From assembly GCF_041915465.1 (NCBI RefSeq), contig NZ_JAYSBK010000004.1, forward strand, positions 13,559 through 77,558: DNA of 64,000 nt, written 5' to 3'. How positions within the stretch are numbered: the stretch's first letter is position 1; every line of letters starts with the position of its first letter. Shown here piece by piece: positions 586 through 20,053 of the stretch. This DNA is from Novosphingobium sp. (lineage in GTDB: Bacteria; Pseudomonadota; Alphaproteobacteria; Sphingomonadales; Sphingomonadaceae). A program made the translations under genes and the position numbers. The notes under the pieces were generated by a model that saw nothing but the letters and a program-made list of their open reading frames with translations, made no database searches and was not told the origin of the DNA.

Positions 586-679
586 CCCCCTGCCAGACGG
601 CAAACGGGGGCGGAAATGTATTCGGGAAACTACCTGGTTTTGCTCGATTCCGGAGGTTTAAATGCCGGAATTCCGCGCC

Positions 680-1915: not shown

Positions 1916-2043
1916 GGGTAGGAGGGTTCCCCGAGGAGTTGCTGACCCCAGAGGTAGCGCCTTTCCAAATTCAGTCAATTTCCCGGGCATTCCCGGCTGT
2001 TGAGGACTTGCCCGCGTCCAGCCGCGCGCTAATCCTTTTGCCC

Positions 2044-2715
2044 ATGGAAACCCGCACCATCGCCATGCCGCGCTCGCTCTTCGCTTTTTCGCTGCTTTAC
2101 GGGGGGCTGGCCGTGCTCGCCGGGGTGCTCGGCACCAAGCTGGCATCGCTTGGCCATTGGCCGCTGCTGGGCGATCTGGCGGTGGAAAGCGGGATCTTCG
2201 CCTTCCTGCTGCTGGTGGTGATGTCGAGCGCGGTGGCCGAACTGTTCGGGCAGGACATGGCGAACAAGCTGGTGCGCTTTGGCTTCGTGCCGCTGATCGT
2301 TTCGATGATCATGCTCACGCTGGTGATCCACGCCGTGCCGCCAGCGCCGTTCTGGCAGGATCAGGAAGCCTTTGCCCGGCTGCTGGGGCAGGGGGCGCGG
2401 ATGCAGTTCGCGGGGCTGATTTCCTATGGCACTTCACAGACGCTCAACGTCTACCTGTTCAGCCGGATAGCGGGCGGGCAGGGCAAGGCACTGGTTTTGC
2501 GCGCTTGGATCGCCAGCCTGCTGTCGCAGATCGTCGACACGATCCTGTTCATCACGATCAGCTTCTATGGCCAGGACATGCCGCTGATGCAGATCATGGA
2601 AGGCCAGATCATTTCCAAGCTGGTGCTTTCCACCATCATGGTCCCGCCGCTGATCGTGGTGTTCGTGCGCCTGGGCAACTGGCTCGACCGCGCCCCCCTG
2701 CAGGCGAGGGCCTAA
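2044..2715 (+). CDS. yhhQ: Queuosine precursor transporter (YhhQ/VUT family)
   Basis: Hydrophobic protein with ELFG, SQTLNVYLF and SQIVDTILF motifs. Confidence 0.8.
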   Translation: METRTIAMPRSLFAFSLLYGGLAVLAGVLGTKLASLGHWPLLGDLAVESGIFAFLLLVVMSSAVAELFGQDMANKLVRFGFVPLIVSMIMLTLVIHAVPPAPFWQDQEAFARLLGQGARMQFAGLISYGTSQTLNVYLFSRIAGGQGKALVLRAWIASLLSQIVDTILFITISFYGQDMPLMQIMEGQIISKLVLSTIMVPPLIVVFVRLGNWLDRAPLQARA

Positions 2716-2758
2716 AAAAACTTCAATTCCGCGCGGAGGGGTCTAAAGGGCGCGCATT

Positions 2759-3655
2759 ATGTCAAACTCACACGATCCCGCTCTGCTGGCCAAGGCCGAA
2801 ACGCTGGTCGAGGCGCTGCCTTATCTCCAGCGCTATGCCGGGCGCACCTTCGTGGTGAAGTATGGCGGCCACGCAATGGGCGATCCCGACCTCGCGCACG
2901 ACTTTGCCGAAGACGTGGTGCTGATGAAGGCCGTGGGGATCAACCCGGTGGTGGTCCATGGCGGCGGTCCGCAGATCGGCGCGATGCTCAAGAAGCTGGG
3001 CGTCGAAAGCCGCTTCGTCGATGGCCTGCGGGTGACCGATAAGGCCACGGCGGAAGTCGCCGAAATGGTCCTCTCGGGCGCGATCAATAAGGAAATCGTG
3101 CGCTGGATCGCGGGTGCGGGCGGCAAGGCGCTGGGCATTTCGGGCAAGGACGGCGGGCTCGTCACCGCGCGCAAGGTGCAGCGCACCACCCGCGATCCGG
3201 GCAGCCAGATCGAACAGGTGGTCGACCTCGGCTTCGTGGGCGAACCGCAAACGGTCGATGCCAAGGTGATCAAGACCATTTCCGATGCCGGGATGATTCC
3301 CGTCATTGCGCCGATCGCGGTGGGCGAGGACGGCGAGACCTACAACATCAACGCCGATACCATGGCGGGTGCGATTGCGGCGGCGCTCGGTGCGGCGCGG
3401 CTGTTCCTGCTGACCGACGTTTCAGGCGTGCTCGACAAGAACAAGCAGCTCCTCACCGACCTGCGCCCGGCCGACATCGAAAAGCTGCAGCAGGACGGCA
3501 CGATCAGCGGGGGCATGATCCCCAAGCTGGAAACCTGCGTTCACGCGGTCGAGGCCGGGTGCGAGGCGGCGGTGGTGCTCGACGGGCGCGTGCCGCACGC
3601 AATGCTGCTCGAAATCTTCACCTCGCGCGGCGCGGGCACCCTGATCCGCGCATGA
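2759..3655 (+). CDS. argB: Acetylglutamate kinase
   Basis: [23 protein letters not shown] and YNINAD motifs. Confidence 0.97.
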
Positions 3656-4155
3656 TCCGGCGGGCCATCCCCGCGCTGGCGCTGCTCGTGCTGGCGGCCT
3701 GCGGGGACAAGGCCGAACAAGCGCCTTCGGCTCCCGCCACCACGGCGGCTGCGCCAGTTCCGGCACCGCCCGTTCCGGCACCGACCCCCAGCGCTGTGCC
3801 GCTTCCGTCCGAATCGCGCGATCCGCGCAAGGTGCTGCTCGAATGGGCCAAGGCCGTTTCGCTCAAGGACTGGGACGCGGCCTATCTCTATTGGGGCGAG
3901 CACGGCACGCGCAGCGGACAGAGCCTTGCCCAGTTCAAGGCGCGCTGGGGCAAGCTCAATGCCCCCGAACTCGAAGTGCGCGAAGGTCAGGCCGAAGGCG
4001 CGGCGGGATCGCTGTTCTATACCGCGCCGGTCACGATCATCGATGGCAAGCGGCGCATCATTGGCGAGGTCGTGCTGCGGCGGGTCAACAACGTGCCGGG
4101 CGCCAGCGCGGAGCAACTGCGCTGGCACATCGAAAGCGACAGTTTCGCATTCTGA
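3652..4155 (+). CDS. Putative lipoprotein with Pro/Ala-rich linker
   Basis: Signal peptide with lipobox LAAC; ATGA overlap with argB stop. Confidence 0.7.
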
Positions 4156-4286
4156 TTGCCGGCGCCAACGAGGACTGGACAAATTAGTAAGTGGTGCTTA
4201 CAAAATTGTGCAGGGAACTCCGGTTGCCGGTGCGCATGCCCTTGGGCTATCAGCGCAGCCTTGCAAACCGGAACGAGGATAGGCCT

Positions 4287-4583
4287 GTGCTCGCTTACAC
4301 ACTGATCGACATTATCGGTTATCTGATCTCGATCATCGTCACGCTGGTCATCATCCAGTTCGTGATGTCACTACTGTTGCAGTTCAACGTCATCAATTAT
4401 CACAACAATTTCGTGAATGCGGCCTGGCAGGCAATCAACGCGCTGCTGGAGCCGATCCTTGCCCCTGTTCGCCGGATCATGCCCGATACCGGCGCCATCG
4501 ACTTTTCGCCGATGGTGCTGATCGTTGGCCTGACCATCCTTCAGAAAGTCCTATACGGACTTGCGATTGCGAGTGTGCAATGA
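4287..4583 (+). CDS. yggT: YggT family membrane protein
   Basis: [18 protein letters not shown] motif; GTG start. Confidence 0.88.
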
Positions 4584-5476
4584 CGGCTTCGATTATCGAC
4601 GGGAAAGCTTTTGCAGCCGGGCTTCGTGCCCGTGTGGCGGACTATGCCGCCACCTTTGAACAGGCCGCTGGCCGCAAGGCGGGCCTCGCCGTGGTGCTGG
4701 TGGGCGAAGACCCGGCCAGCCAGGTCTATGTTGCCTCCAAGGGCAAGGCCACGGTCGAATGCGGCATGGCCAGCTTCGAACACAAGCTGCCCGAAAGCAC
4801 GACCCAGGAAGACCTGATCGCGCTGGTCGACCAGCTGAATGCCGATCCGATGGTCGACGGCATCCTCGTCCAGCTGCCGCTGCCAAAGCACCTCGACGAA
4901 CAGGCCGTGGTCGAACGGATCAGCCCCGACAAGGACGTCGATGGCTTGACGCCGACCAGCACCGGCCGTCTCGCGCTGGGCCTGCCGGGTCTCGTACCCT
5001 GTACGCCGCTCGGCAGCCTGATGCTGCTGAAGGATCAGCTCGGCAGCCTTTCGGGCCTCGATGCGGTGGTGATCGGCCGTTCGATCCTGGTCGGCAAGCC
5101 GATGGCGCAGTTGCTGCTCGCCGAAAGCTGCACCGTTACCATCGCGCACAGCCGCACGAAGAACCTGCCCGACGTGGTCCGCCGCGCCGACATCGTCGTG
5201 GCCGCGGTCGGCCGGCCGGAAATGGTCAAGGGCGATTGGCTCAAGCCCGGCGCGACCGTGATCGACGTCGGTATCAACCGCCTGCCGCCTGCCGAGGGCA
5301 AGACCAAGGGGCGCCTGGTGGGCGACGTCGATTATGCCGAGGCGCGCGAAGTCGCTTCTGCCGTTACCCCGGTGCCGGGCGGCGTGGGGCCGATGACCAT
5401 CGCCGTGCTGCTGCGCAATGCGCTGGTTGCCGCGCACCGCAATGCGGGGGTGGCGCTCGCCGAAGGGGCGCTCTAA
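4580..5476 (+). CDS. folD: Bifunctional methylenetetrahydrofolate dehydrogenase/cyclohydrolase
   Basis: [28 protein letters not shown] and [13 protein letters not shown] motifs. Confidence 0.97.
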
Positions 5477-5486
5477 ACAGGCGCGC

Positions 5487-6173
5487 ATGAAGCGTCTGTC
5501 TATAGCACTCGCCCTGGTTGCCCTATCGGGTGCCGCGATCGCCAAGGATCGCGGCCCGCAGGTCAATTATGCCAACCCCAGCGCCGCGATCGCGGCCGAG
5601 ATCGCTTTTGCCCAGCTCGCGCAGGACAAGGGCCAGTGGACGGCGTTTCGCGCCACCGCGACCAAGGACGCGGTGATGTTCGCGCCGCAGCTGGTCTATG
5701 CGCAGGACTTCCTCAAGGACAAGCCTGACCCTGCCGTTGCCGTGAAGTGGCAGCCGCATCAGGTCTGGTCGAGCTGCGACGGTTCGATCGCAGTGACGCG
5801 CGGGGCCTGGCAGCGCCCCGATTCGACCGGCTATTTCACCACTGTCTGGCAGCGCCAGAACGACGGGACCTACAAGTGGGTGATGGATCAGGGCGATAAC
5901 CTCGCCATGCCGCTCGACGCGCCGGAAATGATTGTCGCCAAGGTCGCCGATTGCCCCAAGGGCAAGCCTTCGCGTCCCATGAAGCGCGCCAAGATCAAGA
6001 AACTGCCACCGCTCGATCCCGCCCACCTCGCCGGTCAGTCGGATGACGGCACGCTGACCTATGAAGTCAACGTCCAGCCCAATGGCGCGCGTCAGTTCAC
6101 CGTCAGCCTGATGCTGGGCGGGCAGCTTGCGCCGGTCCAGATGGTCGAAGTCGCCGCGCCCGAAGGCAAATGA
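5487..6173 (+). CDS. Exported hypothetical protein, NTF2/DUF4440-like fold
   Basis: Signal peptide; YFTTVWQRQNDGTYKWVMD strand typical of NTF2-like proteins. Confidence 0.6.
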   Translation: MKRLSIALALVALSGAAIAKDRGPQVNYANPSAAIAAEIAFAQLAQDKGQWTAFRATATKDAVMFAPQLVYAQDFLKDKPDPAVAVKWQPHQVWSSCDGSIAVTRGAWQRPDSTGYFTTVWQRQNDGTYKWVMDQGDNLAMPLDAPEMIVAKVADCPKGKPSRPMKRAKIKKLPPLDPAHLAGQSDDGTLTYEVNVQPNGARQFTVSLMLGGQLAPVQMVEVAAPEGK

Positions 6174-6793
6174 TCGACCTGTTCCTCTCGGCCTTCGTCA
6201 CCCTGTTCGTGGTGATCGATCCACCCGGCTGCGCCCCGATCTATGCCGGTCTGGTCAGCGGTGCGAGCCACCGCCAGGCCGTGTCGATGGCAGTGCGGGC
6301 CTGCTTTATCGCGGCGCTGATCCTGCTGGTCTTTGCCTTGTTCGGCGAGAATCTGCTGGGTGCGCTGCACATCGAGCTCAATTCCTTCCGCATCGCGGGC
6401 GGCATCATGCTGTTCGTGATCGCGCTCGACATGGTCTTCGAAAAGCGCACCCAGCGCCGCGAGGAACGCGCCGACAAGATCCGCGAGGAGCATGTCGAGG
6501 ACGTGTCGGTTTTTCCGATGGCCATGCCGATGATCGCCGGGCCCGGATCGATCGCGACGGTCATGCTGCTCACCGCGCGCGCTCACGGGACCGAGGAAAC
6601 GCTGGTCGTGCTGGCCGCGCTTGGCGCGGTGCTGCTGCTGACGCTTGCCGCCCTCGCCGCGGCGGGGCCGTTGATGCGGCTGCTCGGCACGCGGGTCGAA
6701 GCGGTGATCACGCGCCTGCTGGGCGTGCTGCTGGCCGCGCTTGCCGCGCAATACGTGATCGACGGCGTCAAGGCCGTGCTGACCGCGGTTTGA
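6170..6793 (+). CDS. marC: MarC family membrane protein
   Basis: VIDPPG, FRIAGGIMLF, FPMAMPMIAGPG and TRLLGVLL motifs. Confidence 0.93.
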   Translation: MIDLFLSAFVTLFVVIDPPGCAPIYAGLVSGASHRQAVSMAVRACFIAALILLVFALFGENLLGALHIELNSFRIAGGIMLFVIALDMVFEKRTQRREERADKIREEHVEDVSVFPMAMPMIAGPGSIATVMLLTARAHGTEETLVVLAALGAVLLLTLAALAAAGPLMRLLGTRVEAVITRLLGVLLAALAAQYVIDGVKAVLTAV

Positions 6794-6796
6794 ACC

Positions 6797-7402
6797 TTAC
6801 TGCAAGGTAACCCGGTCGTCGTCGCTGTCGCGCCGGCCGAAGAACTGCATCAGCTGGATCAGCAATTCGCAGCGCTCCGTCAACGTCCGGGTCTCCAGCA
6901 GCGCCTGCTTTGACGCGGGATCGAACGGCACGATCTGGCTGGTGCCGTCGATCAGCGATTCGTCGTCAAGCCGCGTCACCGCGTCCCAGTCCACCGAATA
7001 GCCCTGCATATCGGCAAAGCGGCGCGCCTCGCGCTCAAACCCGGCGCGTTCGATCGCGGAGAGGGAGGCTCCTTCCTCGTCCTCGATCAGTTCGGCCTCG
7101 ACCTGCCGGAAGGGCGTGGTGACATCGAGCTCGCGAATGATGCGAAAACGCGCCTCGCCTTCCAGGATCAGGTTGAAGCGGCCATCCTCCAGCGCCTCGA
7201 CCTCGTCGATCCGGCCAAGGCAGCCCACGGCATAGAGCGGCGCGCCTTCTGCCGCGCGCTGCGGCTGGATCATCCCGATCCGCCGATCGCGCGCCAGCGC
7301 ATCCTTCACCAGAGCGCGGTAACGCGGCTCGAAGATGTGCAAGGGCAGCTGCAATCCCGGAAACAGGATCGCGCCCGGCAAGGGGAAGATCGAGATGCGC
7401 AC
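6797..7402 (-). CDS. LON peptidase substrate-binding domain protein
   Basis: IFPLPGAILFPGLQLPLHIFEPRYRALV motif; GTG start inferred. Confidence 0.9.
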   Translation of the reverse strand: MRISIFPLPGAILFPGLQLPLHIFEPRYRALVKDALARDRRIGMIQPQRAAEGAPLYAVGCLGRIDEVEALEDGRFNLILEGEARFRIIRELDVTTPFRQVEAELIEDEEGASLSAIERAGFEREARRFADMQGYSVDWDAVTRLDDESLIDGTSQIVPFDPASKQALLETRTLTERCELLIQLMQFFGRRDSDDDRVTLQ

Positions 7403-7419
7403 GGCCCGCGCCCCCGGGC

Positions 7420-8319
7420 CTATCCGAACAGGATCAGCGACAGGCGGCGGCGCTGGGCAGCGACCCATGGATCCTCAAGGCCGACGACCTCGAAGATCTG
7501 CAGCAGCTTGGCCCGCGCCGCACCATCATTCCACGCTCGGTCGGCGCCGATCATGGCAAGCAAGGTGTCGGCGGCAGCATCGCGATTGCCTGCCGCAAAG
7601 GCGGCGTTGGCAAAGGCCAACTGCGCCTCCATGTCGGCCGGGCTTGCCTCGGCGGCAAGACGCAGCGCGGCAAGTTCGCTGTCCTCGGGCTTGTCCTTGG
7701 CAAGATCGAGCGCGGCCTTGGCGCGGGCGATTTCGGCGTCTGCGGCCATTTCGGGCGCGACGGCGCCCAGCATGGCCTCGGCGTGTTCGATTTCGCCGGC
7801 AGCCACCAGCGCGCGAATCAGGCCCGCCTGCGCTGCCGGATTGGTCGGCGCGGCTTCGGCGATCTGGGCGAACATGCCCGCCGCCTGCCCGGCATCGCCG
7901 CCGGCCAGCACTTCCTCGGCCATGGCAAGCAACTGGCTGACGTCTTCCTCGATCCCGCCGCCCGGCTGGACCGGCAGCTTGGCGAGCAACTGATCCAGCA
8001 TCGACTTCAGTTGCGATTCGCTGCGCGCGTTGGTCAGGTCGGCAATCGGCTGGCCCTGGAACAGCGCATAGACCGTGGGGATCGAGCGCACCTGGAACTG
8101 CGCGGCAATGAACTGTTCCTCATCGACGTTGACCTTGGCCAGGACCACGCCCTTGTCGGCATATTCGGCCGCAACCTTTTCCAGCACCGGGGCCAGCGCC
8201 TTGCACGGTCCGCACCATTCAGCCCAGAAATCGAGGATGACGAGATTCGTCATCGAAGGTTCGACCACGTTCTTGCGGAATCGGTCGACCGCCTTCTGTT
8301 CGTCGAGGTTGAGGCCCAT
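7420..8319 (-). CDS. ybbN: Thioredoxin-TPR chaperedoxin (YbbN/CnoX)
   Basis: DFWAEWCGPCK active site followed by TPR-like helical C-terminus ending RRRLSLILFG. Confidence 0.92.
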   Translation of the reverse strand: MGLNLDEQKAVDRFRKNVVEPSMTNLVILDFWAEWCGPCKALAPVLEKVAAEYADKGVVLAKVNVDEEQFIAAQFQVRSIPTVYALFQGQPIADLTNARSESQLKSMLDQLLAKLPVQPGGGIEEDVSQLLAMAEEVLAGGDAGQAAGMFAQIAEAAPTNPAAQAGLIRALVAAGEIEHAEAMLGAVAPEMAADAEIARAKAALDLAKDKPEDSELAALRLAAEASPADMEAQLAFANAAFAAGNRDAAADTLLAMIGADRAWNDGAARAKLLQIFEVVGLEDPWVAAQRRRLSLILFG

Positions 8320-8511
8320 GCTTGCCAAGGGAAACTCCATCAGGATTTGGATGTCGGTCCCCAATGTGGGCCTTTGTGCGGGTTTGTGAAGGGAGAAAGC
8401 ACTTCTTGCGCTTTCAGGCAATTTTCCCCTTGGCAAGCACGAACCCCGATGCTAACCGCGCGCCTCACCCCGGCCCACCAGCCACAAGGCAGGCGGGCCG
8501 CGAACGTCAGA

Positions 8512-8586
8512 GCGGGCGTAGCTCAGGGGTAGAGCACAACCTTGCCAAGGTTGGGGTCGAGGGTTCGAATCCCTTCGCCCGCTCCA
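8512..8586 (+). tRNA. tRNA-Gly (anticodon GCC); probable ICE integration site
   Basis: GCGGGCG..CGCCCGC acceptor stem plus encoded CCA, TTGCCAA anticodon loop, GGTTCGAATCC T-loop. Confidence 0.97.
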
Positions 8587-8637
8587 GTTTTCTTCCACAA
8601 TATCAGTAATTTAAACTCAGGAACGGGCTTCCGTCTT

Positions 8638-8684
8638 CGCTTACAGTCATGCAGCAGAACTGCGGTGTAACCAGAATGTAAGCG
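8638..8684. repeat. Inverted and direct repeats next to the att site (candidate integrase arm-type sites)
   Basis: CGCTTACAGTC (8638-8648) and GAATGTAAGCG (8674-8684) form an 11-bp inverted repeat with one mismatch; TGTAA repeated at 8666 and 8677. Confidence 0.55.
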
Positions 8685-9201
8685 CGACAAAATGTGCTGA
8701 TTAAGCGGCGGATTGCTGCGAAGCTTTGGCAACATCCCGCATGCCAAAGCCGAAGAGCGATACTACGGGATGCTGGACGACACACCCATGGCCGCATAAT
8801 TTGAACCAAATGGCCTCCGGCAATCCCGGGGAGTGTGTGGATGCTCCTAGTTTAGCAAGATGATTTTCTGACGTAATGACGGCGTGGCGCTTCTATCGCT
8901 CGTGTGTCAGGCCCCTTGTTGTGGCCTGAAGGTTGCCACGGGCCGGTATGCAGTCCGAAGATCGCGGTCCACATCGGTTCAGCGAGCTTTTATGCTCGAG
9001 CCCCGGGACTGGTTTCCAGGTCCTGAACATTGAAGTCCTTGCCGCATAATCGTCAGTCGATCCCCTTGCGAGGGCTGCAAAGCCCTCAGGCGCGTAGCCC
9101 AATGGTTCGACCGCGAGGCGCACGGCCCCTGGCGGCAAGGCTGGTGAACGCCGACCTCGTCGAGGCGGACGTTCCGACTTCAGGCGTTATCACATTGCGC
9201 C

Positions 9202-9230
9202 TTGCCAATTAAGTCAGGCTAACTTACCAT
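9202..9230 (+). promoter_or_regulatory. Sigma70-type promoter with operator between -35 and -10
   Basis: TTGCCA-N17-TACCAT; contains 21-mer TAAGTCAGGCTAACTTACCAT (9210-9230), related to the sites at 14543, 20096 and 24943. Confidence 0.6.
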
Positions 9231-9273
9231 AAGGCATCTTGACGATAATGAGTCTTTTTCCGTGAGGGGAGCG

Positions 9274-10986
9274 ATGGAGCAGGGAATGATTGAAGATCGG
9301 CACTCAGCGCAGGTGCTGATCGTTGGCGGTGGCATGGTGGGTATGATCGCGGCGCTGGATCTGGCGCAACGCGGGGTGGATGTCATACTCGCCGAGCAGG
9401 ACTCCTCCGAGCCACCCATGGTCCCGCGCGCAAATCACTTGTCGGCGCGGACAATGGAGATTTTCCGTGGTCTCGGTATCGCGGACAAGGTTCGCAGCCA
9501 GGGTCTGCCGGACGGCTTCGCCAATGATGTGGCGTTTGTGACGACCCTAACCGGATACGAGCTTGCACGCCTTCGCATTCCCAGTCGGCGCAAGCGCTTT
9601 AACAGCATCGGCTATATTGATTCCGACTGGCCGACATCCGAACCGGCGCATCGTTGCAACCAGATGTATTTCGAGCCGACGGTTCGCCAGGAAGTCATCG
9701 GCAATCCCCGAATTCGCACGCTCTTTGGGACACGAATCGATAACTTCGAACAGGACGCCGCGGCGGTGTTCGCAACGGGGCGCAATGATGCTGAGAGGAA
9801 GGCGGTTAGCATCCGCGCCGACTACGTGATCGGATGCGATGGTGGCAGCTCGACGGTGCGCAAGAAGATCGGAGGGGTCTTCGAAGGCGTTGACGTCATT
9901 TCCCGCAATCGCATGGCCTTGGTGCGTTCGCCCGAGTTGCTTGGGCGGCTTACTATGGAGCCGGCCTGGATGACTTGGTTCATCCTGCCCGAGGGGCATG
10001 GTTCGGTTCACGCCATCGACGGTAAGGAACTGTGGTGCTTCCACTGCACGCTGCCCGAAGGCGAAGAGGACTTCGAGAAGCTGGATCGCGACAAGGTGAT
10101 CCGGGCGGCGATGGGGCAGGACATACCCTATGAAATCGTTCATACTGAGGACTGGTTCGGCCGCCGCCTGATTTCGGACAGGTTTTCCGATGGTCGCATT
10201 TTCCTGAGCGGCGATGCCTCGCATATCTGGATCCCCATGGCGGGCTACGGCATGAATGCCGGCGTTTCCGACGTCACCAACCTGACGTGGAAGCTGGCGG
10301 CCGTGCTCGATGGCTGGGCCGATCCGGCGATCCTCGACAGCTATGCGGTCGAGCGTCGGCCAGTTACCGAGCAGGTCTCAAAGTTCGTGGCCAACATCGC
10401 CTACGAGAATTACGACGTGGACTTGCGGCAGAACCCGCCGCCGGAACTCTATGAGGACAGTGTCGAGGGTGAAGCAGTGCGCGCCGAGGCGTCGCGCTTC
10501 CTGACCGACGCAAACATGGGCCAGTTCAACTGTCCGGGGCTCAATTTCGGCGCGGTTTACGAAGGATCGTCGATCATCGTCCCCGACGGCGAGGCCCCGC
10601 CGCCGTTCGAGCTGGGCACCTACACGCCCACGACCATCCCCGGATGCCGCACGCCCCATTTTACGCTGGCCGACGGCACGCCGCTCTATGACCGGATGGG
10701 GCCGGGCTATACGCTGCTGCGAACCGATCCCGCCATTGACGTCGCAGCGCTTGTTGCTGCGGCCGAGGCGCGGAGCGTTCCGCTGACCGTGCTGGATATT
10801 TCCGCTGGTGCCGCCGATGGTGCCTATGCGCACAAGCTCGTCCTTTCACGGCCGGACCAATACGTCGCCTGGCGTGGCAATGCCCTGCCCGACGACGTGA
10901 TGGCGCTCGTCGATGTCGTTCGCGGCGTCGTTCCGGCCAATGGCGGAGCCGGACGCAAAGCGGCCCTGGTGGCCACGGCTGGCTGA
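9274..10986 (+). CDS. Single-component FAD-dependent aromatic monooxygenase (PheA/TfdB/RdmE-like, group A)
   Basis: [10 protein letters not shown] Rossmann motif, [28 protein letters not shown] and C-terminal RPDQYVAWR thioredoxin-like domain. Confidence 0.9.
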
Positions 10987-11000
10987 AGCGGAGAAAAGCA

Positions 11001-12011
11001 ATGGGCAACAATCCCAAACTTCGGATCGAGGCCGAGGGCATCAACGGTCTCTGGCCGATCCTGTGCACGCCGGCGAAGGACAATGCGCCGGACTGGTCGC
11101 AGAGCGATACGGTCGACCTCGACGAGACGGCCCGCGTGGTCGAGGCGCTGATCGAAGCGGGCGTCGACGGGCTGCTGAGTCTCGGCACCTACGGCGAAGC
11201 GCACAGCCTCCTCTGGGAGGAAAAGAAGGCCCTTGTCGGCTGCATCCTGGAGACGATCCGGGGGCGCATTCCCTTCTTTGCCGGATCGACGGCGCTCAAC
11301 ACGCGCGAAGTGGTCGCCCAGACGCGTGCGTTCCACGACATGGGCGTCACCGGGACCATGCTCGGCGTGCCGATGTGGTGCAAGGCCGACGTGCCGACCG
11401 CCGTGCGCTTCTATCGGGACGTGACCGAGGCCTGCCCGGATACCGCGTTGGCGATCTATGCGAACAGCGAGGCGTTCAAGTTCGAGTTCGGCCGGCCGTT
11501 CTGGGCCGAGATCGGCAAACTGCCACAGGCAGTCGCGACCAAGTATCTCGGCATCGGGATGCTCGCGACCGATCTCGAACTCGCACCGCGCCTGCGCTTC
11601 CTACCGACCGAAGCCGATTACTATGCCGCCGCGCGGATTGATCCCGAACGGATCACGGCGTTCTGGTCGAGTGGCGCGTTGTGCGGTCCGGCGACGCAAC
11701 TGGCGCTGCGCGACCGCGTCGCGGATGCCAGGCGCACTGGCGACTGGGCACCGGCCAAGGCCGTGGCGGACAAGATCCGCGCGGCCGACGACGGCCTGTT
11801 CCCGAACGGCAGCTTCGCGGACTTTTCCAAGTACAATGTCGGGCTCGAGAAGGGGCGGATGAACGCTGCCGGCTGGATGAAGGCCGGTCCCTCGCGCCCG
11901 CCCTATCATGTCGTACCCGAAGCTTATCTGGAAGGCGCGCAGCGCTCGGGGCGGGCCTTCGCGGCGTTGCACGCGGAGTTCTCGGCGCAAACGGCGGCCG
12001 AACTGGCATGA
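11001..12011 (+). CDS. nahE: trans-o-hydroxybenzylidenepyruvate hydratase-aldolase-like protein (NahE/DHDPS family), copy 1
   Basis: [23 protein letters not shown] and Schiff-base Lys in ATKY. Confidence 0.88.
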
Positions 12012-12074: not shown

Positions 12075-13127
12075 ATGTCCGCAGTTCTCGATAACGACCG
12101 CAAGGCGCAACTGGCCGGGCTGTATGAAGAAATGCAGCCCGACCATCTCTTCCCCCTGTGGGAAGTGCTGGCGAAGCTGGTCGTCCCCGAGCCGCAATCG
12201 CCGGCCATGCCGGCCCGGTGGTCCTATGAAACGATCAGGCGCTTCCTGCTGCGTTCGGGCGACCTGATTTCGGCCGAGGAGGCCGAACGGCGCGTGTTGA
12301 TCCTCGAGAATCCGGGGCTGCCGGGGCAGTCGGCGATCACGCCGCGACTCTATGCCGGCCTGCAACTGATCCTGCCCGGCGAAATCGCGCCCTGCCACCG
12401 GCACAGCCAGTCGGCGCTGCGCTTCGTGATGGAAGGCGAGGGCGCCTATACGGCCGTGGACGGCGAGAAGGCGTTCATGAATCGCTTCGACCTGATCCTC
12501 ACGCCCAACGGCCGCTGGCACGACCATGGGCACCCCGGCAACAAGCCGATGATCTGGCTCGACGGGCTCGACATCCCGATCGTGCGCTACCTCGACGCCG
12601 GCTTTTCCGATCGTCTCGACCAGCCGAGCTTTCCCGAAAGCGCGCCGCCCGCGAGCACGCAGATGCACTATGGCCGCAACATGCGCCCGGTTCGCTCGAT
12701 GGCCGCCGCCGACAAAGCGCCCGACGTGCCCTTGTTCCACTATCCTTACGCGCAATGGTCCGAGGCGCTTGCCGCCGTCTCGGCGCATGACGCACCCGAT
12801 CCTTGGCTCGGCCACGCGCTCGAATTTCTCAACCCGGCCGATGGCGGACCGGTGATGGCGACCGTCTCGGTCGGTGTGCGGCTGATCCCGGCGGGCTTCG
12901 AGACCGGCCTGCGGCGCTCGACCGAAGGCGCCGTCTACGTCGTGGTCGAGGGGGCGGGACAGGTCGAGGTGGACGGCACGGCCATCGAACTGGCCGCTGG
13001 CGACATCGTCGTCGTGCCGAGCTGGTGCGCCGCGCGCTGGCAGGCGCGCCAGCAGCTCGTGCTGTTCACCTATTCCGATCGCGGCGTGCTGGAAAAGCTC
13101 AAACTCTACAAGGAAGCCCTTGCATGA
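12075..13127 (+). CDS. gtdA: Gentisate 1,2-dioxygenase (bicupin)
   Basis: AERRVLILENPG, APCHRHSQSALRF, WHDHG and WLDGLDIP motifs. Confidence 0.92.
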   Translation: MSAVLDNDRKAQLAGLYEEMQPDHLFPLWEVLAKLVVPEPQSPAMPARWSYETIRRFLLRSGDLISAEEAERRVLILENPGLPGQSAITPRLYAGLQLILPGEIAPCHRHSQSALRFVMEGEGAYTAVDGEKAFMNRFDLILTPNGRWHDHGHPGNKPMIWLDGLDIPIVRYLDAGFSDRLDQPSFPESAPPASTQMHYGRNMRPVRSMAAADKAPDVPLFHYPYAQWSEALAAVSAHDAPDPWLGHALEFLNPADGGPVMATVSVGVRLIPAGFETGLRRSTEGAVYVVVEGAGQVEVDGTAIELAAGDIVVVPSWCAARWQARQQLVLFTYSDRGVLEKLKLYKEALA

Positions 13128-13819
13128 CCCTTCTGTTCGCGCCGCCGCCGCCGGTTCTCGTGCCGACCTCCGACGGGCATGACTATCCCGTTCGGCGCAT
13201 ATTCTGCGTAGGCCGCAACTATGCGGAGCACGCCCGCGAGATGGGATTCGATCCCGATCGCGAGCCGCCGTTCTTCTTCACCAAGTGGGCCGAGACCGTG
13301 GTCCTGTCGGACGCTGCCGTGCCCTATCCGCAGGCGACGTCGGACTTCCAGCACGAAGTCGAACTGGTGGTGGCGATCGGGAGCAGCGGTCGCGACATTC
13401 CCGTCGATGCGGCGCTCGACCACGTCTGGGGCTATGCCGTCGGGCTCGACATGACCCGGCGCGATCTGCAGATGGCCGCGCGCGCCAAGGGGCGGCCCTG
13501 GGATACCGGCAAGAACGTCGAGGCGTCCTCGCCGATCGGCACGCTACATCCGCGCGCCGCGCTCGGCGATGCGGCGAGCGGCACCATTGGCTTGACTGTC
13601 AACGGTGCGGTCCGCCAGAGAGCCGATCTTTCCATGCTGATCTGGAGCGTGCCCGAGGTCGTGGCCTTCCTGTCCGGCCTGTACCGGCTCGAGCCGGGAG
13701 ACCTGATCTATACCGGTACGCCCGCCGGTGTCGCGCCGGTGGTTGCCGGCGACGTGCTCGAAGCCAGCATTGCCGGCCTTGCACCGTTGCGCGTCACGAT
13801 AGCCCCCCCCGCGCCATGA
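13124..13819 (+). CDS. Fumarylpyruvate hydrolase (FAH family, NagK-like)
   Basis: RRIFCVGRNYAEH, HEVELV, DMTRRDLQ and DLIYTGTPAGV motifs. Confidence 0.9.
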   Translation: MTLLFAPPPPVLVPTSDGHDYPVRRIFCVGRNYAEHAREMGFDPDREPPFFFTKWAETVVLSDAAVPYPQATSDFQHEVELVVAIGSSGRDIPVDAALDHVWGYAVGLDMTRRDLQMAARAKGRPWDTGKNVEASSPIGTLHPRAALGDAASGTIGLTVNGAVRQRADLSMLIWSVPEVVAFLSGLYRLEPGDLIYTGTPAGVAPVVAGDVLEASIAGLAPLRVTIAPPAP

Positions 13820-14469
13820 CAGGGCCAGTCGCCAACGGCGCCTTGACGCTGCACGGCTATTTCCGGTCGAGCGCTTCGTGGCGCGTGCGGATCGCGCTGG
13901 GCCTGAAGGGGCTGGCCTACGAGCAGCGGACATATCGGTTGCGCGAAGACGATCACCGCAGCGCGGAATTCCTCTCGATCAACCCGCAAGGGCTTGTGCC
14001 GGCCCTTGAGGTTGGTGGGATGGTGCTGACCCAGTCGCTCGCGATTTGCGAATATCTGGATGAGGCGGTGCCCGAACCGCCGCTGCTTCCTGACGGACTC
14101 GTCGAGCGAGCGCTGGTGCGGGCCTTCGCCCAGGTGATCGCATGCGACATTCATCCGGTGCAGAATCTCAAAATTCTGCGCCGACTCAGTTCGCTCTGCG
14201 TTGACGATGCGGCGGTGCAGGGCTGGGCGCGCGACGTCATCGGCGACGGACTGGAGGTTTGCCTGCGCCTTCTGCCCCGGGAACGCGGGCGCTTCTGCTT
14301 CGGCGACTCGCCAACGCTCGCGGACATCTGCCTAATTCCGCAGATGGCAAATGCACGGCGCTTTGGTGTCGAAATGATCTGGCCCGCTCTCGAGAGCATC
14401 GAACAGCATTGCATGGCGCTGCCTGCCTTCGCCGATGCCGTTCCCGGTCAACAACCAGATTGCGAATAA
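13816..14469 (+). CDS. maiA: Maleylpyruvate/maleylacetoacetate isomerase (GST zeta, NagL-like)
   Basis: YFRSSASWRVRIAL, NPQGLVP and CDIHPVQN motifs. Confidence 0.92.
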   Translation: MTGPVANGALTLHGYFRSSASWRVRIALGLKGLAYEQRTYRLREDDHRSAEFLSINPQGLVPALEVGGMVLTQSLAICEYLDEAVPEPPLLPDGLVERALVRAFAQVIACDIHPVQNLKILRRLSSLCVDDAAVQGWARDVIGDGLEVCLRLLPRERGRFCFGDSPTLADICLIPQMANARRFGVEMIWPALESIEQHCMALPAFADAVPGQQPDCE

Positions 14470-14529
14470 TATCAAGCCATAACGATATATTACGAATCTG
14501 TCGGGGCAGCTGGGCATCGAGAAAAATAT

Positions 14530-14594
14530 GTCAGGAAACCATATGGTCAGGTAACCTTTCTATATTGACGAAAGGACCGGAACTGGGGTAATCT
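14530..14594 (+). promoter_or_regulatory. Promoter with operator upstream of the meta-cleavage operon
   Basis: GTCAGGAAACC (14530) and ATGGTCAGGTAACCTTTCTAT (14543-14563) directly before TTGACG (14565)-N18-TAATCT. Confidence 0.65.
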
Positions 14595-14662: not shown

Positions 14663-14956
14663 ATGGCTGTGAGCAGCTATACGATTGAGAGCATTCTCTT
14701 TTCCCTGCAGTCGGATCCAGACTTCATGGCGCGGTTCAAGGCCGATCCTGAAGCCTCGATTCGCGACTATCCGCTGCGCGACGACGAAAGACAGGCGATC
14801 CTCGATTGGGACGTGCGGGCGATGTCGGATGCCGGCGTCAGCGCCATGTTGCTGATGGTCGCCTTTACCGCGCTCAACGGCCAGCAGGCGATGCCTGACT
14901 ACATGCGGCGCATGAACATGCCCCCCTTGCGGCAGATCGCCAGCGTAACGGCATAA
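14663..14956 (+). CDS. LigA-like small (alpha) subunit of a class III extradiol dioxygenase
   Basis: 97 aa; RFKADPEASIRDYPLRDDERQAILDWDVRAM..GVSAMLL matches the LigA pattern; directly upstream of the LigB-like gene; RBS GGAGGAGG. Confidence 0.8.
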   Translation: MAVSSYTIESILFSLQSDPDFMARFKADPEASIRDYPLRDDERQAILDWDVRAMSDAGVSAMLLMVAFTALNGQQAMPDYMRRMNMPPLRQIASVTA

Positions 14957-14982
14957 GAATAAGGCGGAGAAGGAAACGGGAA

Positions 14983-15816
14983 ATGGCTCAGATCGTCGGT
15001 GGCTTCATTATGCCGCATGCACCCCACTCGGTGGCGACGCCACCGGCCCCGCCGCCGCAAGATAAGTTGGAAGCGTGCCAAGCGGCATTCGATCGGGTCA
15101 AGGAGCGCATACGGGAACTGGAGGTCGATACCGTCATCGTCATCGGTGATGACCATTACACTTTGCATGGCCCACACTGCATTCCGTCGGTCCTGATCGG
15201 GATTGGCGACGTATCTGGGCCGGTTGAACCATGGCTCGATGTACCGCGCGTACCGATCGTGAACAACGAACCGCTGGCGCGTCACATCATGAGTCATGGC
15301 CACAATCATGGTGTGGACTGGGCCTACGCGAAGTCGATGGTTCTTGATCACAGTTGCTATGTTCCATGGCATCACGCGATCCGCGGACTGGACGGCATCA
15401 GCATGATCCCAGTCTATCTAAACGCGGGCGTCGATCCGCTGATCCCGACGCGCCGGTGCTACGAAGTCGGTCAGGCAGTTGCTCGCGCTGTTGCCGAATA
15501 TGAAGGCGCGGACCGGGTCGCGATCTACGGTACTGGCGGCATGAGCCACTGGCCAGGAATGGCGCGGATGGGGCAAGTCAACGAGGAATGGGATCGCCAT
15601 CTCGTCGAATTGATCCGGGGCGGCGACGTCGAGGCGCTGATCGCACTGTCCGATCAGGCAATCCTTGCCGACGGCGGCAACGGCGGGCTCGAGCTGAAGA
15701 ACTGGGTTTGTGCGATGGGCGCCTTCGGCGAATGCACCGGCGACATCATCGCCTATCAGGCGATGTATGAATGGGTGTGCGGTTGCGCCTGGGCGGAACT
15801 GAAGGAGGCCGCATGA
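14983..15816 (+). CDS. Class III (LigB-family) extradiol ring-cleavage dioxygenase, PhnC-like
   Basis: MPH, GDDH, LDHS, GTGGMSHWPG and GGLELKNW metal and catalytic motifs. Confidence 0.9.
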   Translation: MAQIVGGFIMPHAPHSVATPPAPPPQDKLEACQAAFDRVKERIRELEVDTVIVIGDDHYTLHGPHCIPSVLIGIGDVSGPVEPWLDVPRVPIVNNEPLARHIMSHGHNHGVDWAYAKSMVLDHSCYVPWHHAIRGLDGISMIPVYLNAGVDPLIPTRRCYEVGQAVARAVAEYEGADRVAIYGTGGMSHWPGMARMGQVNEEWDRHLVELIRGGDVEALIALSDQAILADGGNGGLELKNWVCAMGAFGECTGDIIAYQAMYEWVCGCAWAELKEAA

Positions 15817-16427
15817 CCGACATTGTCTTCTATTTCGATTTCGGCAGTCCCTACGCCTATTTCGCCCGGCACAAGCTGGTCGAGATCGCCGCGCGGCATG
15901 GCTGCGGGATCGACTATCGTCCGATCGACCTGAAGCGCGCGAAGCTGGAGAGCGGTAACAATGGCCCGCCGACGGTGGCAATCCCCAACAAGCTGGCTTT
16001 CGCGAACAGGGATTTCGCGCGCTGGGCCGAACGGTATGGGGTGCCGTTCAAGTCGATCGGCGGGATCGAGGGCGTGCGCGAGCTCAATATCGGCGCGCTT
16101 TATGCGCTGAACCGGGGGCAGGGCGCGGCCTATATCGAACGTGTATTCGATCATTGCTGGGGCCATGGCGGCCGGCCGGACGACCAGGCATTCGTGGCCG
16201 GGCTGATCGCCGACATGGGCTGGGATGCCGACGATTTCCGCGCTTTCGTGGCCAGCGACGCGGCTGCCGCGAAGTACGAGAGCGTATTCCAGCTTGCCGT
16301 GGCCGATCACGTGTTCGGCGTGCCCGCTTTCGTGATCGGCGACGAGCTGTGGTGGGGCAACGACCGGCTGTTCATGGTCGACGAATACCTCGCCGAACGG
16401 GCGCCAGCGGTTCAGGCCGCCGGGTAA
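15813..16427 (+). CDS. nahD: 2-hydroxychromene-2-carboxylate isomerase (GST-kappa/DsbA family)
   Basis: FYFDFGSPYAYF, VFGVPAF and WWGNDRL motifs. Confidence 0.9.
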   Translation: MTDIVFYFDFGSPYAYFARHKLVEIAARHGCGIDYRPIDLKRAKLESGNNGPPTVAIPNKLAFANRDFARWAERYGVPFKSIGGIEGVRELNIGALYALNRGQGAAYIERVFDHCWGHGGRPDDQAFVAGLIADMGWDADDFRAFVASDAAAAKYESVFQLAVADHVFGVPAFVIGDELWWGNDRLFMVDEYLAERAPAVQAAG

Positions 16428-16443
16428 CATTCTGGAGAATGCA

Positions 16444-17448
16444 ATGACGAAGCGCCTTCGCGCCCCTGCCGACATCAATGGCGTCTGGGCCATCATTCCG
16501 ACGCCGGCCACGCCCGATGCGGGGGATTGGCGCGCGACCGACACGGTCGACGTCGACGAGACCGCGCGCATTGTCGAACTGCTGATCGAGGGCGGCATCA
16601 GCGGCATCCTCTCGATGGGAACGCTCGGCGAGTGCGCGACGCTGACCTGGCCGGAAAAGCAGAAGTTCATGGCGGCGCTGGTGGAATCGGCGCGCGGACG
16701 CGTGCCGGTCTTTGTCGGCACGACCGCGAGCAATACGCGCGATACGATCGAGCAGTCGCGCTATGCCTATGACCTTGGCGCCGATGGCACGATGCTGGGC
16801 CTGCCGCATTGGTGTGCGATCTCGTTGCCCAACGCCGTGCAGTTCTATCGCGACGTTGCCGAGGGCGTTCCCGACCTCAACATCGCCGTCTACGCCAATG
16901 TCGAGGCGTTCAAGTTCGACTTCCCGACGCACTTCTGGGCGCAGATCGCCGACATCCCGCAAGTCGTGACGGCCAAGTACAGCGGCCCCGCCACCCTGCT
17001 GCAGGATCTCCACGCGGTGCAGGGCAAGATCAAGTTCCTGCCCAACGAATACGCCTATTACGGTTGCGCGCGCATGGACGACCGGATCGACTCGTTCTGG
17101 TCGAGCGGCGCGGTCTGCGGTCCCAACGTCGCGATCAGGCTCTACGATCTTGTCGCCGAAGCGCGGCGCACGGGCGACTGGAGCGCGGCGCAGGCCTTCG
17201 CCGGACGGCTGGGGCCTTCGGGAGCAGTGCTGTTCCCCGAAGGCAGCTTCAAGATCTTCTCGACCTACAACATCGCGCTCGAGAAGGTCCGCATGGCGGC
17301 GGGCGGGCTGATCAATCCCGGCCCGGTGCGCCCGCCCTATCGCATCACGCCCGAGCCCTATCTGCAGGGCGCGCGCCGCTCCGGCGAAATGTGGGCGGAA
17401 ATCTCGAAGAGTCTGATTGCCGACGAACAGACCGTCGCGGCTGAGTGA
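16444..17448 (+). CDS. nahE: trans-o-hydroxybenzylidenepyruvate hydratase-aldolase, copy 2
   Basis: GVWAIIPTPA, GTLGECATL, YANVEAFKF and TAKY; follows nahD. Confidence 0.9.
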   Translation: MTKRLRAPADINGVWAIIPTPATPDAGDWRATDTVDVDETARIVELLIEGGISGILSMGTLGECATLTWPEKQKFMAALVESARGRVPVFVGTTASNTRDTIEQSRYAYDLGADGTMLGLPHWCAISLPNAVQFYRDVAEGVPDLNIAVYANVEAFKFDFPTHFWAQIADIPQVVTAKYSGPATLLQDLHAVQGKIKFLPNEYAYYGCARMDDRIDSFWSSGAVCGPNVAIRLYDLVAEARRTGDWSAAQAFAGRLGPSGAVLFPEGSFKIFSTYNIALEKVRMAAGGLINPGPVRPPYRITPEPYLQGARRSGEMWAEISKSLIADEQTVAAE

Positions 17449-17467: not shown

Positions 17468-18982
17468 ATGTCCGAAGTCATGGAACAGAAGGCCCCGGCC
17501 GCAGCGAACCCCTTCCAGGCCGAATACGGCCACCTGATCGGCGGCCAGTGGGTCGGTGGTTCGAGCGGCAAGCTGATCGACCAGTTCAACCCGGCGACCG
17601 GGCAGTTGCTCGGCCGGATCCAGGCGGGCAGCGTCGAGGATGCCCGCCGAGCGGTCCAGGCGGCAGCCGATGCCTTCCCGGCATGGTCGAAGACCTCGGC
17701 GGCGGAACGCCAGGCGATCCTGTTCGAAATGCTCCGCCGGCTGAAGGCGCGGGAAGCCGATTTCGCGCGCATGGAAACGCTCGGCAATGGCAAGCACATC
17801 GTCGAATCGACGCACTTCGACCTGGCGATGACCATCGACACGTTCGAATATTTCGCCGGTACGCCGTTCCTTGCCAACAGCGGCGACCTCGAGGCGACGA
17901 AGGACTACACGGCGATGATCTTCCGCCAGCCGATTGGCGTGTGCGCGCAGATCATCCCCTGGAACGTCCCGCTGCTGATGATGTCGATGAAGATCGCTCC
18001 GGCGCTGGCCTGCGGCAACACCGTGGTGCTCAAGCCTGCCGAAACGACCTCGCTGTCGGTGCTCGAGTTCTTCCGCGAAATGGAGGATCTCATCCCGCCC
18101 GGCGTGATCAACGTGCTGACCGGTTACGGCTCGGAGATCGGCGAGGCGCTGGTCACCAATCCGACGGTGCGCAAGGTTGCATTCACCGGCTCGACCATGA
18201 CCGGCCGCAAGATCATCGAATACGCTTCGAAGAACATCATTCCCCAGACGCTCGAGCTAGGCGGGAAGTCGGCGCAGATCGTCTGCAAGTCGGCCAATAT
18301 CGACGCCGCCGTCGAAGGCGTGACGGCCTCGACGGTGTTCAACAAGGGCGAGGTGTGCCTGGCTGGGTCGCGCGTTTTCGTGCACGAGGCGGTGCGCGAC
18401 GAGTTCGTCGAGAAGCTGGTCGCGCAGATCCGCAAGATCCGCATCGGCGATCCGCTCGAGTGGAGTACGCAGCTTGGCGCGATGGCCTCGAAGGCCCAGT
18501 TCGAAAAGGTCAGTTCCTACCTCGACCTGGCGCAGGAGGAAGGCGCGGTGGCGCTGACCGGCGGCAGGCCCGCAGCGGTCGAGGGGCAGGAGCAGGGCTA
18601 TTTCATCGAGCCGACCATCCTCGACAACGTCAACAACCAGATGCGCGTCGCGCGCGAGGAGATCTTCGGCCCCGTCACCAGCCTGCTGACCTGGTCGGAC
18701 GAGGGCGACGTCGTGCGTCAGGCCAACGATTCGCCGTTCGGTCTGGGCGGCGGCGTGTGGAGCCGCGACATCACCGAGGCCAATCGCATTGCGCGCGGGC
18801 TCGACACCGGCTGCGTCTGGATCAACCGCTACTACAACATGAAGTCGGGCATCCCGATCGGCGGTTTCAAGATGAGCGGCTTCGGACGCGAAGGATCGCG
18901 CGAAGTGCTGCAGCACTACACCATTTGCAAGTCCGTCGTGATGAGCACGGACGACGAACCCATGGGTATTTTCGCTCACTGA
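17468..18982 (+). CDS. NAD-dependent aromatic aldehyde dehydrogenase
   Basis: IIPWNVP, FTGST, LELGGKS, catalytic FNKGEVC and EEIFGPV motifs. Confidence 0.93.
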   Translation: MSEVMEQKAPAAANPFQAEYGHLIGGQWVGGSSGKLIDQFNPATGQLLGRIQAGSVEDARRAVQAAADAFPAWSKTSAAERQAILFEMLRRLKAREADFARMETLGNGKHIVESTHFDLAMTIDTFEYFAGTPFLANSGDLEATKDYTAMIFRQPIGVCAQIIPWNVPLLMMSMKIAPALACGNTVVLKPAETTSLSVLEFFREMEDLIPPGVINVLTGYGSEIGEALVTNPTVRKVAFTGSTMTGRKIIEYASKNIIPQTLELGGKSAQIVCKSANIDAAVEGVTASTVFNKGEVCLAGSRVFVHEAVRDEFVEKLVAQIRKIRIGDPLEWSTQLGAMASKAQFEKVSSYLDLAQEEGAVALTGGRPAAVEGQEQGYFIEPTILDNVNNQMRVAREEIFGPVTSLLTWSDEGDVVRQANDSPFGLGGGVWSRDITEANRIARGLDTGCVWINRYYNMKSGIPIGGFKMSGFGREGSREVLQHYTICKSVVMSTDDEPMGIFAH

Positions 18983-19012: not shown

Positions 19013-20053
19013 ATGCCCTTTGTCCAGAACGCCTGGTACGTGGCCGGCTGGAGCAACGAGGTCGGCAAGGAAGCACCCTGGGGGCGTGTGATCGCTGGTC
19101 GGCCGATTGTCTTCTATCGTGGCGAGGACGGTTCCGTGGTCGCATTGGAGGACCGCTGCAGCCACCGCTGCGCGCCGCTGTCGAAGGGGCGCGTGGAAGG
19201 CGACGCGGTACGCTGCTGGTATCACGGGCTGCTCTTCGGGAACAACGGAGCCTGTCTCGAAATGCCGGGGCAGGACCGGGTGCCGTCGGGCTTCGGGATT
19301 CACGCCTATCCGGCCGTCGAGAAAGAAGGCTGGATATGGGTCTGGCTTGGCAGTGCCGCAGCGGCCGACGAGGCGCTGATTCCCGCCTGCGGCCTGGATG
19401 AGGGCGGGATCGACTATCGGACCGGTCATCTCGACTACGCGGCGAACTACGAACTCATCAACGACAATCTGTGCGACCTCTCGCACGTCGCTTACGTGCA
19501 CGAGCAGACGTTGGCCCGCGATGCGACGGACTGGGTGCAGCGCGAAGCGACCTACACCAACATCGACAATGGCGTGGGCGTGGCCCGGTGGATTCCCGGC
19601 TCGCAGCCGCTGCCATTGCCCGGACTGCCCGAACGGGTCGACATCCGGTCGAGCTATTCGTTCTACGTTCCCGGCGCGATGTCGCTGCTCATCGCCTACT
19701 ATCCGGTCGGCACTGCCGCCGCTGTGGAATACGGCGAGCCGCACGATGCGCCGCTGTTCGCGCTGCGCAACGTTCATGGTATCACGCCGACCGACGAGAA
19801 GTCGTCGCGCTATCATTTCGGGGTGTCGCTGCCGGTCAATCCCTGTCCGCCCGAAGCGCTCGATGCGGCGATCGCGATGGTCACCTTTGCCTTTGGCGAG
19901 GACAAGCAGACGATCGAGGACCAGCAGCGCGCGCTTGACCTGTTTCCCGACGTGGTCCTGCGCAACACGGTTCACGATACCGCGCTCATGCGCATTCGCC
20001 GGCTGATTGCCAACCAGATCAAACGGGAGACGACGATATCGTCGGAAGTCTGA
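19013..20053 (+). CDS. Rieske non-heme iron monooxygenase, VanA/TsaM/DdmC-like (O-demethylase or methyl hydroxylase)
   Basis: Rieske CSH-x16-CWYH and mononuclear iron DNLCDLSHVAYVH; no beta subunit gene adjacent. Confidence 0.88.
   Translation: MPFVQNAWYVAGWSNEVGKEAPWGRVIAGRPIVFYRGEDGSVVALEDRCSHRCAPLSKGRVEGDAVRCWYHGLLFGNNGACLEMPGQDRVPSGFGIHAYPAVEKEGWIWVWLGSAAAADEALIPACGLDEGGIDYRTGHLDYAANYELINDNLCDLSHVAYVHEQTLARDATDWVQREATYTNIDNGVGVARWIPGSQPLPLPGLPERVDIRSSYSFYVPGAMSLLIAYYPVGTAAAVEYGEPHDAPLFALRNVHGITPTDEKSSRYHFGVSLPVNPCPPEALDAAIAMVTFAFGEDKQTIEDQQRALDLFPDVVLRNTVHDTALMRIRRLIANQIKRETTISSEV

Follow-up and report, generated by a model that had tools for sequence, protein, structure and literature searches.

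The DNA analysed here, called the window below, is a 64,000-nucleotide stretch of a Novosphingobium contig. Downstream of a tRNA-Gly gene it carries a catabolic cluster made of four units, namely FMO-nahE1-gtdA-FAH-maiA, in which a flavin monooxygenase (FMO) gene comes first; ligA-ligB-nahD-nahE2-aldh-vanA-like; TonB receptor-marR; and xylX-xylY-pdxA-reductase followed by an old-yellow-enzyme (OYE) stub. A ferredoxin and an alcohol dehydrogenase are encoded on the strand opposite to the four units. The features, in window positions, are the following.

8512-8586, forward strand: tRNA-Gly, likely integration site of the cluster-bearing element
9202-9230, forward strand: sigma-70-like promoter TTGCCA-17-TACCAT, conserved in three related loci
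9213-9243, no strand: tandem pair of palindromic 15-bp operator boxes (9213, 9229) covering the FMO promoter
9274-10986, forward strand: FMO, group A, PRK06126 RebC/DxnD-like subfamily by profile score, domains and model fold
11001-12011, forward strand: NahE1 hydratase-aldolase, about 65% identical to Pseudomonas NahE, of a clade with fixed Tyr64/His68
12075-13127, forward strand: gentisate 1,2-dioxygenase (GtdA), TIGR02272 over cut-off, closest structure the E. coli-type enzyme 2d40
13124-13819, forward strand: fumarylpyruvate hydrolase (FAH family)
13816-14469, forward strand: maleylpyruvate isomerase (MaiA), TIGR01262 over cut-off
14479-14560, no strand: three operator boxes (14479, 14530, 14546) upstream of ligA
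14663-15816 (14663-14956 and 14983-15816), forward strand: LigA/LigB-type extradiol dioxygenase, 40% and 60% identical to the pair of the carbaryl mcb cluster
15813-16427, forward strand: NahD-like 2-hydroxychromene-2-carboxylate isomerase
16444-17448, forward strand: NahE2 hydratase-aldolase
17468-18982, forward strand: aromatic aldehyde dehydrogenase
19013-20053, forward strand: VanA/DdmC-type Rieske monooxygenase (O-demethylase or methyl oxidase)
20099: operator box upstream of the TonB receptor gene
20134-22602, forward strand: TonB-dependent receptor
22727-23215, forward strand: MarR regulator, with a 79% orthologue in the STE_139 cluster
23325-24425, reverse strand: Zn alcohol dehydrogenase
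24495-24848, reverse strand: Rieske ferredoxin
24946: operator box upstream of xylX
25060-26457, forward strand: XylX
26454-26948, forward strand: XylY
26958-27944, forward strand: PdxA/TphB-like dehydrogenase
27937-29181, forward strand: reductase
29181-29633, forward strand: OYE gene, truncated (386 aa in the STE_139 cluster)

Copies of the last 45 bp of the tRNA-Gly are present on host contigs C6 and C12, where no tRNA-Gly was called, and conjugation, relaxase and replication genes lie downstream of the catabolic cluster; this arrangement fits an integrative element that entered at the tRNA-Gly and carries the cluster. In 375 genomes of the genus no FMO orthologue of more than 50% identity was found, which marks the cluster as rare and mobile; none was found in 400 genomes of the order either. 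Inside the element, at 40666-49123, a 996-aa protein whose residues 41-168 form a RelA/SpoT domain is preceded by three ORFs of 504, 510 and 868 aa that have no Pfam match, and this region could be a defence or toxin-antitoxin locus.

The enzymes of the cluster resemble those of sphingomonad clusters for polycyclic aromatic hydrocarbons (PAH), with identities of 61–67% for XylX, 71% for PdxA, 64–68% for NahE2 and 60–62% for the aldehyde dehydrogenase; XylX, XylY and PdxA are 66, 63 and 71% identical to the xylXY-pdxA trio of Croceicoccus PQ-2. In the PAH clusters one finds numerous ring dioxygenases together with BphC, catechol 2,3-dioxygenase and a Rieske salicylate hydroxylase; in the cluster of the window, LigAB, gentisate cleavage and the FMO take their place. 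Its only ring-cleaving enzymes are LigAB and the gentisate dioxygenase; therefore the product of XylXY and PdxA should be a 1,2-dihydroxynaphthalene and the substrate of the cluster should be a naphthoate.

The FMO gene encodes a protein of 570 aa, and its ATG at 9274 is preceded by a purine-rich ribosome site. The protein scores 618.7 bits against NCBIfam PRK06126 (cut-off 445) and thus belongs to that family; among its best 25 family matches no equivalog family is above its cut-off. It has the domains FAD_binding_3 and Rng_hyd_C. The model (pLDDT 89) has the PHBH-type fold, with RebC as the top match (TM 0.85 by query, 0.93 by target) ahead of PieE and HbpA. RebC (PDB 2r0c, 2r0g), from rebeccamycin biosynthesis, shares the three-domain group A fold and is the nearest solved structure by sequence as well (E 1e-78, 33% identity); unlike the FMO, it is a biosynthetic enzyme, and its substrate is an indolocarbazole. 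We therefore describe the FMO as a predicted single-chain FAD/NAD(P)H group A hydroxylase, for which family and fold are computed while substrate and regiochemistry are what we infer. The PRK06126-type subfamily comprises 3285 proteins at E ≤ 1e-100, and none among the matches listed is named by substrate. The protein-cluster names of the relatives likewise gave no substrate-specific annotation, and the literature searched on PRK06126 yielded nothing relevant. The FMO was also considered as a NahG or a 3-hydroxybenzoate 6-hydroxylase; it was rejected as either for its 570-aa length with Rng_hyd_C and for the place of TIGR03219 and PRK08163 outside the best 25 matches.

The initial annotation had called this enzyme PheA/TfdB-like, a label that we replace with PRK06126 RebC/DxnD-like. 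McbC (1-naphthol 2-hydroxylase), HbpA, TfdB and PheA share the fold, but McbC is only 28% identical to the FMO and scores 363 against PRK06126, below the cut-off. The position of HbpA His48, which we take to be catalytic, is His in HbpA, PieE and McbC and Asn54 in the FMO. The next residue, His55, is invariant in 97 relatives, and because of this and its position beside Asn54 it is a possible substitute base. In the phylogeny against group A hydroxylases that had been proposed earlier, the FMO does not group with McbC, which is a long outgroup branch, nor with the DxnD branch (Swit_4892); the FMO and the DxnD branch form separate starred clades. All three fingerprints, GxGxxG, DG and GD, are present in the one chain, as GGGMVG (18–23), CDG (188–190) and GDASH (313–317). 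GGGMVG and GDASH, which had been singled out as variant motifs, are thus real but not very informative: 52 of 270 homologues contain GDASH, and only the replacement of Pro by Met in GGGMVG is specific to the clade, the four closest proteins having Met, Met, Ala and Cys there, with GxGxxG kept.

The three closest proteins are 69–71% identical to the FMO, and the gene of each lies ahead of the same nahE1 and, where the contig extends, ahead of gtdA-FAH-maiA. The order FMO-nahE1-gtdA-FAH-maiA is intact in the window, in the Novosphingobium MAG STE_139 and in a Logan contig, and a short fourth contig has FMO-nahE1-gtdA. STE_139 has nearly the whole cluster at 63–92% identity, and in the Logan contig the cluster is rearranged with its first five genes still together; among these loci the other modules have moved while the FMO operon has stayed together. 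The OYE gene of STE_139 is whole and has its own operator box, followed by a GntR gene and a gene for an HcaE/NDO-like alpha subunit.

In all four FMO promoters a shared tandem pair of 15-bp boxes lies over the −10 region. The TTGCCA-17-TACCAT site itself occurs at chance level in a scan (one match, shuffle mean 1.4). When an operator matrix built from the other loci only was run on the window, it recovered both FMO boxes and five more, ahead of ligA, the TonB receptor gene and xylX; 0.1 matches would be expected in these three other promoters, and 0 of 1000 shuffles reached five. The same sites recur in STE_139 and in the Logan contig, and in the latter also ahead of a divergent sulfatase gene (L085:6320-7822), which has two boxes and shares its regulation with the cluster on that contig. 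This sulfatase hints at an aryl-sulfate substrate in that locus. We infer that MarR (22727-23215) is a candidate binder of the boxes. Since the FMO operon, ligAB-nahD-nahE2-aldh-vanA, the TonB receptor gene and xylXY-pdxA share the operator, the FMO belongs to one naphthoate-type pathway and is not a passenger. It is thus real, conserved and co-regulated, and its branch within the known flavin hydroxylases is so far uncharacterised. Two points of the initial annotation are borne out here: the monooxygenase heads the gentisate operon as the first gene downstream of the promoter-like site, with nahE1 between it and gtdA, and its place in the pathway follows from the conserved operon and the shared operator, with no other dedicated gentisate-forming hydroxylase in the cluster.

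Which reaction, then, does the FMO catalyse? The two leading readings are those that the initial annotation had offered, a para-hydroxylating or decarboxylating enzyme that makes gentisate and a naphthol ortho-hydroxylase. Our preferred reading, to which we give a rough probability of 0.48, is that it forms gentisate from a salicylate-type acid by hydroxylation at C5, the position para to the hydroxyl. All steps of the route that we propose are taken from homology. A 2-naphthoate would be imported by the TonB receptor, and XylXY with the PdxA-type dehydrogenase would dioxygenate and decarboxylate it to a 1,2-dihydroxynaphthalene, which LigAB, NahD, NahE and the aldehyde dehydrogenase would take to a salicylate. 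If the naphthoate carried a 6-methyl or 6-carboxy group, the salicylate would be 5-methylsalicylate or 4-hydroxyisophthalate, with C5 blocked, and the VanA-type oxygenase, the alcohol dehydrogenase and the aldehyde dehydrogenase would convert the methyl to a carboxyl. The flavin hydroperoxide of the FMO could then hydroxylate the carboxyl-bearing C5, CO2 would leave, and the gentisate formed would pass to GtdA, MaiA and FAH. In a simpler sub-case, the same attack at C5 would occur on plain or 4-substituted salicylate, with no leaving group. Taken separately, an ipso-decarboxylating C5-hydroxylation is rather unlikely, and a plain 5-hydroxylase is somewhat less likely than that. The most economical version has 4-hydroxyisophthalate, derived from 6-methyl-2-naphthoate or naphthalene-2,6-dicarboxylate, converted to gentisate by para ipso-decarboxylation; with this step a single-chain FMO would close a mobile, co-regulated pathway for both compounds. 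In that full form the proposal is a little more doubtful than ipso-decarboxylation in general, and it leaves no gene of the cluster without a role but the OYE stub. We found no gene set for these two compounds in the literature searched, an absence that is weakly shown as an unrelated word match swamped the naphthoate search.

Formation of gentisate by the FMO is favoured by the conserved FMO-gtdA operon, by the shared operator and by the host's want of a NagG-type Rieske enzyme. In the genome (95.7% complete) there are three Ring_hydroxyl_A genes; the one in the window is BenA/XylX-like, the other two are not NagG-like, and neither a NagG-type alpha subunit nor a naphthalene dioxygenase is among them. 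The earlier statement that NagGH and NahG are missing thus stands for the window and the cluster, with their sole alpha subunit BenA/XylX-like, but not strictly for the genome, which has a NahG/3HB6H-superfamily gene at C1:7390-8586, below every family cut-off and adjoining its own cupin dioxygenase gene. That part of contig C1 (4312-13009, L206) is a chromosomal group of TonB, FAH, cupin dioxygenase, NahG/3HB6H-like monooxygenase, CoA transferase and HMG-CoA lyase genes, below family cut-offs where scanned. Salicylate-hydroxylase-type Rieske enzymes are found in L003 and L244, two naphthalene-type clusters with more distant PRK06126 genes, and in genome G791, and these too argue for the gentisate reading. 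In L046, an independent naphthalene-type cluster, a DxnD-side PRK06126 gene lies directly ahead of gtdA. The L046 locus (358-11295) comes from a MAG labelled Klebsiella; its 18 ring-hydroxylase matches suggest that the label is wrong.

There are precedents for the chemistry, which stays within known reactions. RebC decarboxylates by hydroxylating a carbon that bears a carboxyl (PMC11350588), and ipso removal of the 5-substituent of 5-sulfosalicylate gives gentisate (PMC8006333). Under the preferred reading the FMO fills the same pathway slot as NagGH, NagX/XlnD (3-hydroxybenzoate 6-hydroxylase) and NahG. Of these, NagGH is a Rieske enzyme made of several components (PMC8006333), and NagX and NahG differ from the FMO as 400-aa flavoproteins that lack the C-terminal thioredoxin-like domain. 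A further precedent is Swit_4892 of Rhizorhabdus wittichii RW1, a PRK06126 protein (745 bits) with 36% identity to the FMO over 553 aa. Both have N54, Q130, W232 and H257, but Swit_4892 lacks H55, H246, R297 and W319, lies on a separate branch and feeds hydroxyquinol cleavage, not gentisate; its gene precedes those for maleylacetate reductase and hydroxyquinol dioxygenase, an arrangement also seen around rhizobial homologues. Swit_4892 is presumably DxnD, which in work by Armengaud of 1999 reportedly converts 4-hydroxysalicylate to hydroxyquinol with decarboxylation. Another RW1 monooxygenase encoded beside a gentisate dioxygenase, Swit_5101, was discarded as a relative (381 aa, no significant match to the FMO). 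All members of the NahE1 clade (36/36) have the polar residues Tyr64 and His68 in place of Phe and Ala, which is consistent with a polar ring substituent, be it a hydroxyl or a carboxyl, and this counts for the gentisate reading as well.

Several observations weigh against it: the relatives at 43–51% identity repeatedly lie beside catechol-cleaving pathways, the DxnD branch is a separate clade, nahE1 stands between the FMO gene and gtdA, and G791 has a NahE1-clade gene and gtdA without the FMO, its salicylate-hydroxylase-type Rieske gene being on another contig. These pathways are represented by homoprotocatechuate genes in two genomes of Novosphingobium and in Variovorax, and by extradiol dioxygenases in L086 and L100. 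At 43–59% identity, the neighbours are homoprotocatechuate genes, extradiol dioxygenases or stilbene-cleaving genes, and since the relatives adjoin catechol-cleaving or related genes, ortho-hydroxylation is suggested as the usual chemistry of the branch.

Hence the FMO may instead be an upper-pathway enzyme that forms a diol, a possibility of real weight though short of an even chance. Its substrate would be a naphthol or hydroxynaphthoate, which it would hydroxylate next to the hydroxyl, at the ortho position, or from which it would displace an ortho carboxyl in the manner of NahG and HipH, to give the 1,2-dihydroxynaphthalene for LigAB. Gentisate would then come straight from gentisaldehyde, because the substrate already has a 6-hydroxy or 6-methoxy group, and the VanA-type enzyme would act as an O-demethylase to unmask the latter (for example in 6-methoxy-2-naphthoate; 2,6-dihydroxynaphthalene is another candidate). 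Consequently the need for a salicylate 5-hydroxylase is weaker than first claimed, since gentisate could be reached from a 6-hydroxy- or 6-methoxy-naphthoate with no such enzyme. Diol formation agrees with the neighbours of the 43–59% relatives and with the role of McbC, which serves a ligAB-nahD-nahE cluster much like that of the window, its LigB being 60% identical. It also agrees with the two NahE genes, which fit two rounds of cleavage, and with the Logan sulfatase, another route to a free phenol. In L244 a 44% relative occurs together with a VanA-type gene, ligAB, gtdA and the salicylate-hydroxylase-type Rieske enzyme; because of that enzyme, the relative is probably not the gentisate maker there. 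The nearest relative outside the clade (P0006) has H246 and C255 as well, and the 13 kb read at its locus contain no gentisate genes. On the other hand, the distance to McbC and the missing His48 speak against a diol-forming role; XylXY and PdxA already give a diol, so the FMO would be a second entry placed first in a lower operon, and the alcohol dehydrogenase is less well explained.

The predicted substrate pocket does not decide between the gentisate and diol readings. Mapped by alignment to RebC, it consists of N54, N212, T234, F236, S244, H246, C255 and H257, and it is more polar than that of the sister clade. F216, R230 and R239 of RebC correspond to T234, H246 and C255; with no Arg at the mapped positions (H246 for R230, C255 for R239), binding of two carboxylates is not evident from the alignment.

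The substrate of the most economical version is also that of HipH, a flavin hydroxylase of Pseudomonas putida NCIMB 9866. HipH converts 4-hydroxyisophthalate to protocatechuate with loss of the ortho carboxyl, and upstream of this step the VanA-like methyl oxidase PmmA1 oxidises the ring methyl to a carboxyl (PMC13599478). HipH is likened to the FMO by its substrate and not by sequence, and its product counts against the gentisate reading. If the FMO acted in the same way, a chromosomal protocatechuate 4,5-dioxygenase of the host would finish the pathway and the gentisate genes would serve a 6-hydroxy substrate. Beyond the HipH precedent, LigAB-like genes on host contigs C2 and C60, outside the cluster, and a 46% relative in Aminobacter with pobA and 4,5-cleavage lower-pathway genes as neighbours are in keeping with this, but the conserved co-transcription is with gtdA and not with protocatechuate genes, and we consider such a role improbable. 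Still less probable is an accessory role outside the main flux, in which gentisate would come from the VanA-type oxygenase or the C1 NahG/3HB6H-like enzyme, or GtdA would cleave salicylate directly. The C1 gene and the G791 arrangement could be read in this way; against it, four loci with 30% divergence have all kept the FMO as first gene behind tandem operators, and GtdA is a conventional, E. coli-type enzyme.

Either main outcome would give a function within a large, almost unannotated hydroxylase subfamily. If the FMO makes gentisate, it would be a one-protein replacement for the unrelated four-part Rieske salicylate 5-hydroxylase, and the route would be complete for carboxylated naphthalenes, common dead-end products of methylnaphthalene oxidation. 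Naphthalene-2,6-dicarboxylate is the acid monomer of the polyester PEN.

Other members of the subfamily have neighbourhoods of their own. PRK06126 relatives of 43–51% identity are the first genes of homoprotocatechuate operons in Variovorax and Novosphingobium (L188:10001-21654, L301:3316-10245 and L302:8365-15266), and by their neighbours they are candidates for a single-component hydroxyphenylacetate hydroxylase. In three sphingomonad genomes (L243:2878-12143, L299:8527-17640 and L300:8301-17372) a PRK06126 monooxygenase occurs with a carotenoid/stilbene-cleaving oxygenase, an aldehyde dehydrogenase, and MFS, TonB and MarR genes. A related unit without the FMO, with VanA-like, aldh, nahD, nahE, ligAB, leuCD and CoA transferase genes, is present on pLA3 of Novosphingobium US6-1 (L242:12944-24475). 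Tandem PRK06126 paralogues, three in L189:10001-15221 and two in L101:2327-5750, lie downstream of a LysR gene and near CoA ligase and hydrolase genes.
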